Made by a program: the position numbers and the translations under genes | From: Octopus vulgaris | Taxonomy: Eukaryota | DNA: 64,000 bases | Direction of reading: 5' to 3' | NCBI GenBank assembly: GCA_951406725.2 | Contig: OX597828.1 | Span: 69,812,001-69,876,000, forward strand | Notes under the pieces: generated by a model | The model's input: only the letters and a program-made list of their open reading frames with translations | What the model was told of the DNA's origin: nothing | The model's database searches: none | In this document: one piece after another, positions 5,498-48,865 of the stretch | Layout: each line of letters opens with the position of its first letter | How positions within the stretch are numbered: position 1 is the first letter of the stretch

Positions 5498-6182
5498 TGG
5501 ATGGATGGATGGATGTATATATGCATATGTATGAAGGTATGTACAAGAAGTTTCCATAAAGTTTTTGTCTAATTCCACTCGCAGTTCATTGGTTAGCTGG
5601 AAGCTCCAATAGAAAACATGCATCCATGGTGCCGTGCATTGGTACAGAACTTGAGACCATTTGATAACAATACCAAACTCTGTAGCTACACAGTCATATA
5701 TACATCAACATAATTTATTCACACACACATATTGGCGCGAGCTCACGCATGCATTTAAAAAAAAATTACTAATTTTGTAACAAAACCTAAAAGTACACCA
5801 CACATTGAATCAAATGTTCGTAGAATATCTGGTGTGCATTTGTTAAACGAGTGTAGAATATCTGGTGTGTATATATTTATTAATGATGCAGAATTAAACA
5901 GGACCAGGGTGCGGCTGTCATTTCTCTGGTTGGCTGTATGTGAAAACGAGATTGGGAAACGGCTTAATTAGTTCAGAAAGGGTTTAATTAATTGAGAAAT
6001 TGTGCAGTGTCTACATTTATCGCATTACATGGCATATATTCTATCAATCTACTGATTGGTGAATACGGTTGAGAGAGAAAGAGAAAAAGAAAGAGCCAAT
6101 TGAACGAAACCATGGTTTGGAAGGGTAACGTGGTCGTTGCTTAACTGTCACACACACACACATAAATATAGATATATATGTG

Positions 6183-6240: not shown

Positions 6241-6282
<42 letters not shown>

Positions 6283-6304
6283 GTAGAAAAAAATATATAT
6301 ATAC

Positions 6305-6815
6305 AAACTGGGACAAGAACGTAAAACATTTAGAAGACGATACAAAAACACGGACGGGACATTCGAAGCCTTCAATCTTCAGTCAAGAACCGGATCATCC
6401 TAGCAATTTCGGCTGATTAATCTTGAGATCGCTCCGATCCGGCCAGCCCCAAGGAAAAACTAAGCTACGAGCATTAGATTTCTTGGAAAAAGGATCGAAT
6501 GTATACGAAACAGGGACAGAAAAACGGACGATGCCACACGAATATAAAATACAAAAAACAATAATAGTAATAACAGGACAAAAACAGCGGGTGTCTTACG
6601 ACTAATAGACAGTACAACTTAGTTTAGCTGGCGTATTTGGAAAAAAATGCCTTTTTCGGCAGACGAAGACAACGATGTTCTCATGGCGCTGGTTAGAAGC
6701 CGAAAGGCTGGTTGACCAGCGGTCACGTGAGAGGAGAAGGGAGAGAAAAAAAGGGGGCAAAGGAATCAAAGAGAGAGAGAAAAAGAGGGACGAAGGCACC
6801 AAAGGGGGAGAGAGA
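6305..6815 (-). mobile_element. Non-coding interspersed repeat (PLE-like family X, copy A) carrying hammerhead-like modules
   Basis: Homologous to 6925-7610, 29660-30330, 37520-37632 and more distantly to 17824-18282. Bounded by (TA)n. Confidence 0.7.
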
Positions 6816-6851
6816 AATATGTATATATACATGTGTGTGTATATATATATG

Positions 6852-6914
<63 letters not shown>

Positions 6915-6924
6915 AAAAATACAA

Positions 6925-7608
6925 AATGAGACAAGAACGCAAAACATCCAGACAGTTAGGAGATACAAAAAAGGGACAACAAAATATCCGGATAGACGAT
7001 ACAAAGAAAACAAGGACGGGTCATTCGGAGTTTTCTTTCTTCAGTTGAGTTCCAGATTATCTTTGCAATTTCAGTTGGTTATACTCGAGATTGTTGCAAT
7101 CTGGCCAGCCCCAAGGAAAAACTAAGCTAAGAGCATTAGATTCTTTGGAAGAAAGGAGCGAATGTATACGAAAACAAGCACGGGAAAAAAATGGAGAATG
7201 TTTCACAAATATAAATAACAGGACATAACAACAGGTGTCTTTCGACTAAGGACGAATTAAATTAAGCTGGTGTGTGTGTGGAAGTAAAGTCTTATGGCAG
7301 GGATACAAGATTTCACAGGCACAGGGAGGAATATAGATGTTGCACGGATGGCGACCGAACCAAGAAAGAAAGGTGGTCAGGATTAGCCGAACACCAGTCA
7401 CGTGGGGAGAGAAGAGAGAGAGAGGTAGAGGCAGAGGGACAGAAGAAATAAGGGGGAGGCGAGAAAAAATGACAGGGATACAGTGAAGTGAAAAGAGGAG
7501 GGAAAGTGAGCAAGAAGGGAAGGCAAAGAAATGTGAGAGAAGGGGAACGAAAGAACGAAGAGTGGAATGAACGAAGTAAGCGTGAAAGAGCTGATAGAAA
7601 GAAGGAAA

Positions 7609-7685: not shown

Positions 7686-8050
7686 GAGGCGCAATGGCCC
7701 AGTGGTTAGGGCAGCGGACTCGCGGTCGTAGGATCGCGGTTTCGATTGAGTGTTTATTGAGCGAAAACACCTAAAAGCTCCACGAAGGCTCCGGCAGGGG
7801 ATGGTGGTGATCCCTGCTGTACTCTTTCACCACAACTTTCTCTCACTCTTGCTTCTTGTTTCTGTTGTACCTGTATTTCAAAGGGCCGGCCTTGTCACTC
7901 TCTGTGTCACGCTGAATATCCCCGAGAACTACGTTAAGGGTACACGTGTCTGTGGAGTGCTCAGCCACTTACACGTTAATTTCACGAGCAGGCTGTTCCG
8001 TTGATTCGGATCAACCGGAACCCTCGTCGTCGTAACCGACGGAGAGCTTC
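7686..8050 (+). mobile_element. tRNA-derived SINE (head type A), third tail type
   Basis: GGCGCAATGGCCCAGTGGTTAGGGCAGCGGACTCGCGGTCGTAGGATCGCGGTTTCGATT head. Its tail also occurs inverted at ~20290-20370. Confidence 0.8.
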
Positions 8051-17551: not shown

Positions 17552-17612
17552 TCGCCATGATAGATCGTTAGCCACTACACACTTTTTTTCTCTCCTTGTT
17601 TTTTCTGTGTCC

Positions 17613-17648
17613 CATTCTGTAGAAGAGCGTAGGCTCGAAACATATAAG
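17613..17648 (+). ncRNA. Minimal hammerhead-like motif, A6U variant, decayed stem I
   Basis: CUGUAGA a GAGC(guag)GCUC GAAA CA UA. Same family as 28029-28064. Confidence 0.55.
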
Positions 17649-17731
17649 ATTTTTTCTATTTCTGAGTGTTATACTAATACATCTGTTTGTTTTGTACATC
17701 ACCTGTCTTCGTCTTTTGTTTTTTTCGTAAA

Positions 17732-17824: not shown

Positions 17825-18282
17825 AAGGATTGAACAGACAGAACATAACAAGGGGAAAAAGTTAGACGGAAGTAGACCAAACGGGAAACTAGACAGAAAC
17901 TTAGACAAAGACACGATACACGGAATATTCGTAGTTGAGTTTTCCTCGTCAATCAATGAACCAAAATATCATCATGGTTTCGCACCATTATCATTGAGAC
18001 CACTCAATCTTGGTGGTGCAAGTGCTGTTATTAAGCTACTGGGAAAAAGCTAGCGAATGTATACTGAGACAGAAACAAAGAAGACAATATATAAACAATG
18101 GTACGAAACCACGATGGTATTTTGGTTCATTGACTGACGAGGAAAACTCAGCTTCGAATATTCCGTGTATCGTGTCTTTGTCTATATTCCCCGTTCGTTA
18201 AGTTTTCGTCTAGTTTCCCGCTTGCTTTACTTTTGTCTAACTTTTTCTCCTTGTTGTGGTTGTTCTGTCTGTTCAATCCTTG
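17824..18282. repeat. Inverted duplication of a divergent family X member (copies C and D)
   Basis: 17824-17990 is the reverse complement of 18097-18282 (CAAGGATTGAACAGACAGAAC / GTTCTGTCTGTTCAATCCTTG etc.). Confidence 0.85.
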
Positions 18283-29659: not shown

Positions 29660-30440
29660 AATGGAACAAAAACGGAATAGAGAGCATTAAAACGTTTAGA
29701 CAGTTACACGATACAAAGGCGGACAAGAGAAACAACAATTTGAAGGACAGACAAAAAAAGACGGGTCATTCTTGGCTTTCTTTCATCAGTCAAGTCCCAC
29801 AAGACCATTTCGGGCAGTTACACTTGAGATGGTTCGATCTGGTTGTTCCCAAAAAAGTCTAAGCTAAGAGGATTAGACCTCTTTGTAAGAAAGCTAGCGA
29901 ATGTGTACGGCAATAAAGACAAAAAACAAACAAAACAAAAAAACGGAGAACATGGTACACACTTACGAATACAAACAAGAAATAACAACAGGCGTCTTTC
30001 GACTGAGAACGAATCAAATTGAGCTGGCGTGTATGAAGTGAAAGCATAAAGGCAGAAACATGGGAGATGGCCACAAGAGGTGTTGGCGGTCGGCAGTCAG
30101 GCCAAGAAAGAAAGATCATGGCTAGCCGGACTCCAGTCACGTGGAAGGAGTAGCGATGGGTAGGGGACAGCGGGATTGAAGGATTAGAAAAAATCAGAGA
30201 AAGGTACAGGGGAGATAAACGAGTGGGAAATAGTGAGAGTTAAAGAAAGAGAGGGCCAAGAAATGTGAGAGAGAGGGGGAGCGAGAAAAAGGAAAAGGAA
30301 GAAAGTAAGAGGGGACTAAATGATAAAGTAAGAGTCGTACAAAATTTAGATACACACCTACTATAAGGTGAGTACAAGGGTATATGTATACAAGAGAAAT
30401 ATCAATTAGGACAGGCAAAAACAAAGAGGGTCATTCTTGG
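29660..30440 (-). mobile_element. Family X, copy E (plus a partial repeat of its start)
   Basis: Shares ACGGGTCATTC, CTAAGCTAAGAG, GCGAATGT.TACG, GTCTTTCGACT and CCAGTCACGTGG with copy B. Confidence 0.7.
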
Positions 30441-37500: not shown

Positions 37501-37729
37501 ATGATATGTAAAAAAATACAAACTGTGACAAGAACGCATAACACTTAGAAGACGATACAACAAACACAGACAGGACATTCGAAGCCCTGTCTTCAGTCAA
37601 GAACCGGATCATCCTCGCAATTTCGGCTGATTATATATATACATACTTACACACATATATGCATTTACAAATATATGTATATACATATATATATGTATCA
37701 ATATGCACACACACACATACATTCATTAA

Positions 37730-47938: not shown

Positions 47939-48021
47939 AATATACCCATACCTTTTATATATATTTATGGATTCGTTAAGGTTAACACAACCTCTAATTA
48001 AATTATATATATATATATATA

Positions 48022-48865
48022 TGCCACCCACGACACACTAGAATAGATGTCCCTTTTTGTTTAGCTAGAAGGATTTGCACCATAATATCAGACACAAACA
48101 CTCGACACACACGTCTCCAGGAACTTAGAACCACACTCACAAATAGAAACTATCCACAGCCCCTAATAGACAGTGCAATCCAAAGGGCACTCAAATTAAG
48201 TATAGAAGACTTGAGACAAACAAAACCAAAAAAGAAAGAACAATTAAAAACCCTTCCCTACATCTCTACACACAACCCACTCAACAATGAGGCCTTCAGC
48301 ACCATACTACAAAGCATAGCCCTACTAAAGGGAGACCCAAAGATGAACCGGATCCTCGAAACACACACCATCATTAAAAGTAAACGGTAACCAAAATCCT
48401 TGAAAAGGATTTTAACCCAAGCTAAACTGCACTCAACATCAACCACAAAACCAGCAGTTAGAAAATGTGGAAGGCCCAACTGCGGAATCTGTGTCATCTT
48501 GGTAGAAGGTTCAGAATTTATACTAGAACAAGGCCATCAGTTCACCATTAGAGTAAACTTCACCTGCGCATCAGAAAACTTAATTTACGTCTTAACATGC
48601 AATAGGCAGTATATAGGTCATACAAAAAAATAGCTTACGTAACAGGATGGCGGTGCATAAATCACAAATTAGAAACCCTGAATACCGGAAAATACCGGTC
48701 AGCGGACACATAGATAGATGTGCTGCAAATGTAAATCCGAAATTTACAACTTACCCACTTTATAAATTCAGTGACAGCGTAACCTTCACGCAACGACAAA
48801 ATAAAGAACTTTATTTCATCAAAAAATTTAGACCAAGTTTGAACACCATGGGCCAGGAATATTAA
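48022..48865 (+). pseudogene. Penelope-like element (Neptune-like) RT thumb, Zn-linker and GIY-YIG endonuclease; 5'-truncated and disrupted
   Basis: CHPRHTRIDVPFCLARRICTI...RLQEL..TL.NRNYP, then KCGRPNCGIC, FTCASENLIYVLTCNRQYIG, RMAVHKSQI and KELYFIKKFRPSLN. Confidence 0.9.

Follow-up and report, generated by a model that had tools for sequence, protein, structure and literature searches.

The stretch of Octopus vulgaris DNA analysed here (the window, 64,000 nucleotides of contig OX597828.1) carries six copies of a repeat, A to F, each holding all or part of a motif built around the strings GAAA and CUGANGA. They lie where an initial annotation had placed them, and the same six were the sole nhmmer matches in the window. 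Coordinates are collected in Table 1. The annotation's reading of position 7 (A, A, C, C, U and A in the six copies) and of a single C3U, in copy C, also held. It had noted that copies D and F lack one arm of a hairpin; this is correct, and more is missing, as both are 5'-truncated and start 8-9 nt past the predicted cleavage site. Copy B is decayed, unlike the majority sequence of its subfamily, which is intact.

Table 1. Features of the repeat and neighbouring elements (window positions unless a locus is named; strand-map rows refer to copy A)
Feature	Positions	Strand	Remarks
Copy A, repeat of a young subfamily	6281-6819	-	5'-truncated; 3' end at (TA)n; putative ribozyme motif intact; ends approximate
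Copy B, putative ribozyme	7022-7164	-	C17 at 7089; decayed: C11.1>U, mismatches in stems II and III
Copy C, putative ribozyme	17927-18059	-	C17 at 17998; GUC site; C3U
Copy D	18097-18159	+	inverted partner of C; truncated ~9 nt past predicted site; only blocks G and C
Copy E, putative ribozyme	29767-29903	-	C17 at 29828; 5-nt deletion ahead of P4'
Copy F	37576-37633	-	truncated ~8 nt past predicted site; only blocks G and C
P0 5' strand (P0a + P0b)	6487-6501	-	partner is the strand after A9
Hairpin H	6449-6486	-	between P0 5' strand and G10.1
Stem II 5' strand (G10.1-10.5)	6444-6448	-	detached from A9
P4 5' strand	6436-6442	-	counterpart of the SGC stem I-II interaction helix
Block S	6422-6432	-	stem III strand 16.5-16.1 = 6432-6428; C17 = 6427; stem I strand 1.1-1.5 = 6426-6422
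Block G	6403-6415	-	stem II strand 11.5-11.1 = 6415-6411; G12-A13-A14-A15.1 = 6410-6407; stem III strand to 6403
P4 3' strand	6390-6396	-	stem III strand and UH site of the initial annotation
Block C without stem II strand	6376-6387	-	stem I strand 2.5-2.1 = 6387-6383; C3-A9 = 6382-6376 (CUGAAGA)
P0 3' strand	6360-6375	-	directly 3' of A9; first two positions U-U mismatches in subfamily A
GUC-GNRA-GAC hairpin	6593-6602	-	~170 nt 5' of the site
CACGTGAC box	6721-6729	-	end of CT-rich body
Type I-like motif, Poseidon-like tail	~17605-17660; L486 ~2890-2940; L115 ~7865-7900	+ (window)	by eye
Neptune-like PLE ORF fragment	48004-48844	+	RT C-terminus and endonuclease (tblastn)

The repeat is abundant. 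First-look candidates in this genome numbered 2,791 for copy A, the 40 that were scored being 97-100% identical, and 1,791, 296 and 2,274 for copies B, C and E, respectively. An exact pattern for the 3' part of A and B, which takes in two subfamilies, had 3,865 matches, and its control pattern had none. By rough extrapolation from seven matches in 400 kb of arbitrary stretches, the genome as a whole would hold tens of thousands of copies.

A full unit starts after a short (TA)n run, is about 840 bp long and consists of a CT-rich body, the motif, which is located in the 3' part, and a tail ending at (TA)n. No ORF was found in the unit between its start and its tail. Copies are variably 5'-truncated, and frequently occur as a partial unit followed by a full one or as inverted pairs such as C and D. 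The head-to-tail tandems are 737-872 bp apart (15 rows, two of which are the same locus). Partial tandems of this pLTR-like kind, inverted 5'-truncated copies and microsatellite targets are features of Penelope-like elements (PLEs), agree with what the passages covered of Craig et al. (2021, PMC8557442) say of PLE insertions, and support the annotation's view of the repeat as PLE-like. The motif sits in a non-autonomous Penelope-like unit that lacks an ORF and inserts at (TA)n. The box CACGTGAC is kept in subfamilies A, B, C and E and was also seen in L034, L058 and L062; it could be part of an internal promoter. The GUC-GNRA-GAC hairpin has the same location in subfamilies B and E and lies inside a larger conserved segment. 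Its loop alternates between GUAA (39) and GAAA (37) among about 90 matches, and it is possibly a docking or RT-recognition element.

PLE ORFs occur in 12 of 356 loci, as separate neighbours where these were inspected, and the autonomous partner of the window family was not found among the PLE loci inspected. Neptune-like (L118, L028) and Poseidon-like (L115, L486) ORFs were considered for this role and rejected; they share the (TA)n targets but have other tails. The unit matched the four PLE 3' UTRs tested only via low-complexity CT runs, and a full copy of the motif was present in two of 29 further Poseidon-like loci. The Poseidon-like family has 19,759 candidates in the genome, with 95-97% protein identity among those scored. 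By eye, its tail has a minimal motif resembling a type I hammerhead; the core is atypical, as position 6 is U and an additional A precedes stem II. Neptune-like sequence is represented in the window by an ORF fragment and, about 24 kb past the window end, by L118 (3917-6550, plus strand), a PLE with a DKG-motif RT, GIY-YIG and one frameshift. L118 also has, by eye, a minimal type I hammerhead at ~6345-6390, with U4C, so ordinary and rewired hammerheads would coexist in this genome. Canonical minimal type I motifs were also scanned for, with no match even at the places where candidates are visible by eye.

On the minus strand of copy A the strands of the motif run in the order stem II (5'), P4, site, GAAA, P4', CUGANGA, ie II5'-P4-S-G-P4'-C, with S, G and C denoting the blocks that hold the cleavage site, GAAA and CUGANGA. 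The predicted cut, after AUC, would fall between 6427 and 6426, and six nucleotides link the stem I strand to the 3' strand of stem II. Because the site block lies ahead of the GAAA block (order S-G-C), each of stems I, II and III is pseudoknotted. The initial annotation was right in proposing a non-standard order of hammerhead modules; that the order is a circular permutation did not hold, as S-G-C belongs to the non-circular class. The chain is interrupted between A9 and G10.1 by two extra helices, P0 and H. P0, H and stem II follow one another with at most a few unpaired bases between them, and A9 runs into P0; therefore the chain ends lie in P0. This agrees with the earlier suggestion that the chain is opened between A9 and 10.1 or forms a four-way junction. 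We infer that P0, H, stem II and the core would form such a junction, in which G10.1-C11.1 could still stack under A9-G12, and that P4 may tie the distal ends of stems I and II together in the manner of the 'I' helix of type-SGC hammerheads. By a rough A-form estimate a P4 strand can span the core (38 Å needed, against a reach of 51-61 Å), so that a monomer is allowed.

Pairing was assessed in an alignment of 32 real copies, chosen from 211 full copies to span the subfamilies; a chimeric copy, L139, was removed from the 211 before covariation was counted. Stems I, II and III together were paired in 93.5% of 478 cells, against 21-36% for slid registers, and had 92 two-sided changes where shuffles gave 30.5 ± 4.1 (0 of 500 reached the observed figure). 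Taken singly, stem I was 98.1% paired, stem II 91.9% and stem III 90.5%. The pairing of the strand before GAAA with an upstream strand had been recognised in the initial annotation, as had its closure by G-C, which is present in 31 of the 32 copies. The full 46-pair model was paired in 88.3% of 1370 cells, P0b reaching 96.3%; the values for H (72-95%) and P4 (79.9%) come from helices whose register in the MAFFT alignment is partly off, and P4 has 4-9 bp in the eight subfamily majorities.

A model-free analysis (MI-APC, 10,585 pairs) placed the stem III pair 16.3-15.3 at rank 1 and stem II pairs at ranks 3, 7 and 12; many of the high-ranking pairs are phylogenetic noise. The covariation derives from few independent subfamily splits. 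A second count was made on the internal branches only of a 210-copy tree. There, 15 core pairs showed nine compensatory events against 0.8 ± 1.0 expected (0 of 20,000 re-pairings equalled this). All three of the column pairs with two compensatory events were predicted ones, in stems II, III and P0, the P0 pair being the first after A9; for P4 the same count was zero. The junction of P0 with A9 is not always perfect, since the adjoining P0 positions are U-U mismatches in the youngest subfamily (A). RNAfold, which cannot model pseudoknots, alone gave P0 and H in four of four copies, and P0, H, P4 and III in two of the four; its z-scores were weak for two of the four (-1.3, -1.45). One subfamily (L108, L142, L309) has a duplicated H region and P4 cut to 4 bp, with an intact core and a stem III of 6-7 bp, and in L108 it forms exact tandems (5906-6103 and 6749-6946, minus strand) at a spacing of 843 bp.

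The 14 core positions are invariant in the eight subfamily majorities, compared with 45 of 121 non-core positions. N7 is free, all four bases occurring, and the site is AUC or GUC. Among 74 copies that had not been picked by a core pattern, each core base was retained in 66-74. A stem II strand directly after A9, which the annotation had reported as missing, is indeed absent; the bases there are 27.5% paired with the stem II partner, which is below chance (498 of 500 shuffles did as well), and only one of 140 descriptor matches has a stem II of at least 3 bp after CUGANGA. A type II or canonical SGC arrangement with stem II after A9 is thereby ruled out. Instead, the P0 strand is the one that covaries with the nucleotide following A9.

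Taken alone, CUGANGA is no more frequent in the window than chance would explain (35 occurrences, against 28.9 ± 5.6 by chance). A descriptor of the paired architecture, in contrast, had 140 distinct matches in 1.67 Mb of fetched loci, the majority of which were picked because they hold the repeat, and none in reversed or complemented controls. The signal is therefore the paired architecture rather than CUGANGA. Rfam reported no hammerhead among the 150 listed of 446 matches in the window, mostly microsatellite artefacts, and over copy A no hammerhead even at E<=10, with three weak matches. A family-specific pattern found 120 loci in metagenome contigs (46 of 64 parts scanned) and nine in viral contigs; the descriptor passed one of these 129, weakly (stem II of 2 bp), and this was taken as chance. 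Among sequencing-run contigs the repeat was present under four organism labels, and no RNA run was listed as having it.

The fold drawn in the initial annotation used the same strings differently. Stem III was placed just after GAAA and the cut at a C at 6394, near 6393, with a stem I of about 3 bp, in a circular permutation. It is drawable for copies A and D, and its seven pairs score 71.7%, slightly over shuffles; its stem III, however, reaches 62.7% pairing, one of its pairs is disrupted in 27 of the 32 copies, and its seven two-sided changes lie within the shuffle range (77/500). The covariation of three helices, which the annotation had proposed as a check, is thus found for stems I-III as now assigned and not for its own stem III. 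Position 6394 is a U, and the UC in question belongs to helix P4. Stems III, P4 and I give these bases a better pairing, and the site and the stem I and III partners lie inside what had been drawn as a hairpin loop. Once stem III, the site and stem I are reassigned, the short stem I that had been conceded as a weak point is gone; the real one has 6-7 bp in all eight subfamily majorities. The related possibility, two decayed type I motifs in tandem, is contradicted by the absence of CUGANGA (at up to one mismatch) from the ~58 nt 5' of stem II in all eight subfamily majorities, as the annotation had said, and by the lack of a stem II plus GAAA downstream in most subfamilies. The downstream GAAU might be taken for a GAAA variant belonging to a type I motif, a reading that was rejected: it is part of helix P0a, and no stem III, UH or stem I comes after it. 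None of the sequence findings on which the annotation would have given up its rewired hammerhead was encountered. Its fold is nevertheless largely refuted, and both this fold and the decayed tandem are now hardly credible.

Two further explanations accept the helices. In one of them the site is also accepted, and the active form would be a dimer or tandem with strands swapped between two units. Minimal PLE hammerheads are active as dimers or strand-swapped tandems, and Cervera and de la Pena in 2014 and Lunse in 2017 reportedly described dimeric PLE hammerheads. The copies are often head-to-tail tandems of the spacing given above, and P4 joins both distal stem III strands to the distal ends of stems I and II, which are far apart in the known fold as given in the sections of Eckert et al. 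(2023, PMC10085705) used here. Against this, both strands of every helix are inside one 140-nt unit, a conserved palindromic loop is absent and the rough reach estimate permits a monomer. Natural SGC ribozymes with a similar link also cleave as single transcripts according to the same sections (PMC10085705), and we regard the dimer as unlikely. The other explanation is that the fold is real and is no longer, or never was, catalytic, serving as an RT-recognition or stalling element; this bears on the 5' ends of the copies.

The ends were read from copies matched by a pattern placed entirely 3' of the site; the matches listed first were used, giving 94 distinct copies in the first 70 Mb of one contig. 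The sample covers two related subfamilies and the initial stretch of a single chromosome. In the interval from -112 to +39 relative to the site there were 46 ends, 20 of them in +1 to +16 (p 1e-8 by a binomial test; reached in 0 of 20,000 simulated scans), and the adjoining 16 nt upstream had four (20 vs 4, p 8e-4). Two of those four are TA-run overlaps that probably start at +1. An apparent cluster of ends at -130 was an alignment artefact of a subfamily indel, outside the tested range. Such a pile-up, of which window copies D and F are examples, would be expected if RT ran off the 5' end of RNA cut by the ribozyme, and may be an indirect sign of cleavage. Were the element non-catalytic, ends would instead collect by RT stalling or by microhomology jumps to (TA)n. 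The linker at +6 to +11 does resemble TA repeats, so microhomology may contribute to the pile-up, as may stalling, and some ends are also near other AT-rich spots. Yet 13 of the 20 ends are outside the linker, +1 is where the excess stops, and few ends fall in I', P4' and III', which the RT reaches first (0.003 vs 0.014 per nt). Moreover, the invariant positions are exactly the catalytic ones of the hammerhead, with N7 free. We consider a fold devoid of catalysis very improbable.

The motif very probably has the hammerhead fold, and it is likely to cleave at the predicted site. With a probability of roughly 0.8, we read it from its sequence as a complete hammerhead core in a non-circular, triply pseudoknotted strand order, and as a likely active hammerhead cutting after AUC or GUC.

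In this genome a Naiad-type RT element also terminates in this wiring, built from different stems. A short motif from its tail had 379 matches, and its control none. In 14 copies of sufficient length the pairs formed were 81 of 84 in stem II, 66 of 70 in stem III, 75 of 84 in stem I and 64 of 70 in P4, whereas a stem II after A9 was paired in only 29 of 84; H17 is A in 13 of the 14. At L539, RT fragments (Pfam RVT_1, E 1.3e-5, below the cut-off) run into a UTR of about 880 nt that ends in the motif. In the Naiad clade the RT forms the C-terminal end of the ORF, with the 3' UTR after it, and GIY-YIG is N-terminal. Two of 20 ends of this family, no more, were near the site; the pattern used reached no further than +11. 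Published octopus Naiad ends match the tail. By eye, the same order with different stems is found at the ends of Naiad_Obim, Naiad_Ovul and two Acropora Naiad consensus sequences, and the latter also show P0 and H, in the displayed part of the sequences of Craig et al. (2021, PMC8557442); in the text displayed from that supplement the wiring is not obvious by eye in most other Naiad consensus ends. The sequence match between the window family and the Naiad-type tail is not significant, so the two are linked by shared architecture and not by close descent. The Naiad-type copies are 84-91% identical and subfamily A is young; therefore another, active PLE probably supplies the RT for the window family now. 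A different motif (CGGGUG ... CAG ... GCUYACUC ... CACCUG), which may resemble a permuted twister-sister ribozyme, occurs at other Naiad ends in place of the hammerhead order. It is shared by several bivalve, Clytia and hemichordate 3' ends in the part of the supplement displayed (PMC8557442).

Among known hammerheads the closest is type SGC (HRIMA-1 and variants), as described in the sections of Eckert et al. (PMC10085705) drawn on here. Its block order, S-G-C, defines a non-circular class, and it shares with the present motif the full core, several pseudoknots, a short linker from stem I to the stem II strand (typically 3 nt there, 3-6 nt here) and a helix joining the distal ends of stems I and II (the 'I' helix there, P4 here). 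The sections in question assume that block C is uninterruptible, CUGANGA and its own stem II strand staying together, and in type SGC the 10.x strand does follow A9 directly. Here, block S has the 10.x and interaction strands on its 5' side, A9 continues into P0, and there is an additional hairpin, H. SGC-type RNAs are known, in the same account, from metatranscriptomes only, genomes of known organisms offering none but one weak GCS candidate (PMC10085705), whereas the present motif belongs to a high-copy animal retroelement. With types I-III, including the minimal type I of PLEs and Terminons, it has in common the core, stems I-III, G10.1-C11.1, A15.1-U16.1 and an NUH site and, with the minimal type I of PLEs, a location near the 3' end of a PLE-like element; their order, however, is the cyclic C-G-S, opened in a stem and with no pseudoknot among the core stems, whereas C-S-G with crossing stems is found here. 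The PK (pistol-like) hammerhead of Zhan et al. (2024, PMC11300833) is likewise natural and has an additional helix and a pseudoknot by stem II. Its connectivity is a different one: in the parts of that paper used, G10.1-C11.1 comes right after A9, and the loop of stem II is paired with that of helix IV.

As to the element, the sections consulted of Cervera and de la Pena (2020, PMC7229834) and Li et al. (2026, bioRxiv 10.64898/2026.07.22.740005) describe non-LTR retrozymes that are also non-coding, ribozyme-bearing and tandem-prone, and that are thought to be mobilised by PLEs. Those carry type I hammerheads in units of 150-450 bp and are expressed as circular RNA; the present unit, with a non-type-I motif, measures 737-872 bp and occurs mostly as 5'-truncated singles or partial-plus-full pairs in (TA)n. 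Naiad PLEs, in the passages covered of Craig et al., resemble the window family in preferring (TA)n, in being 5'-truncated and in forming partial tandems and inverted copies; the window family, unlike them, lacks an ORF, and its sequence does not match the Naiad tail significantly. According to those passages a canonical hammerhead is absent from Naiads; strings called 'HHR_core' and 'HHR_half_core' are flagged, Naiad_Ovul having the latter, and no fold is given in the passages covered (PMC8557442).

The motif thus appears to belong neither to types I-III nor to type SGC as defined, and would work like a hammerhead ribozyme. A precedent for the break between A9 and 10.1 was not found in the hammerhead literature examined, nor did a full-text search of journals outside subscription find a description of an S-G-C wiring interrupted there; the term 'type-SGC' itself was found only in the paper of Eckert et al.

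The proposed role is as follows. The ribozyme would cut the upstream unit of a head-to-tail transcript and so fix where the RNA template begins at its 5' end. An RT of Penelope type, acting in trans, would prime at (TA)n on the 3' tail and copy the template up to the ribozyme-cut end. The outcome would be short copies and tandems of a partial and a full unit, the partial unit often starting just past the site. We think it probable, going by sequence comparison, that this is an active seventh hammerhead topology, its core broken at A9/10.1 by a four-way junction, and that both abundant non-autonomous repeats and Naiads, from corals to octopuses, have it as their ribozyme, which would set the 5' end of the template in vivo. 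Few ribozyme motifs in genomes of this kind may be more numerous, while descriptors for types I-III and SGC would all miss it.

The contiguity of CUGANGA with its stem II strand, a stated assumption, is broken here, and the scheme of six hammerhead permutations would be incomplete. Non-circularly permuted hammerhead RNAs would move from metatranscriptome contigs to animal chromosomes, at high copy number. The predicted self-cutting of an animal repeat with thousands of copies, if true, extends rewired ribozymes beyond environmental samples. The motif also offers a concrete answer to the apparent lack of a hammerhead in Naiad elements, and the pile-up of insertion ends makes the long-standing idea that PLE ribozymes cut tandem precursors directly testable.
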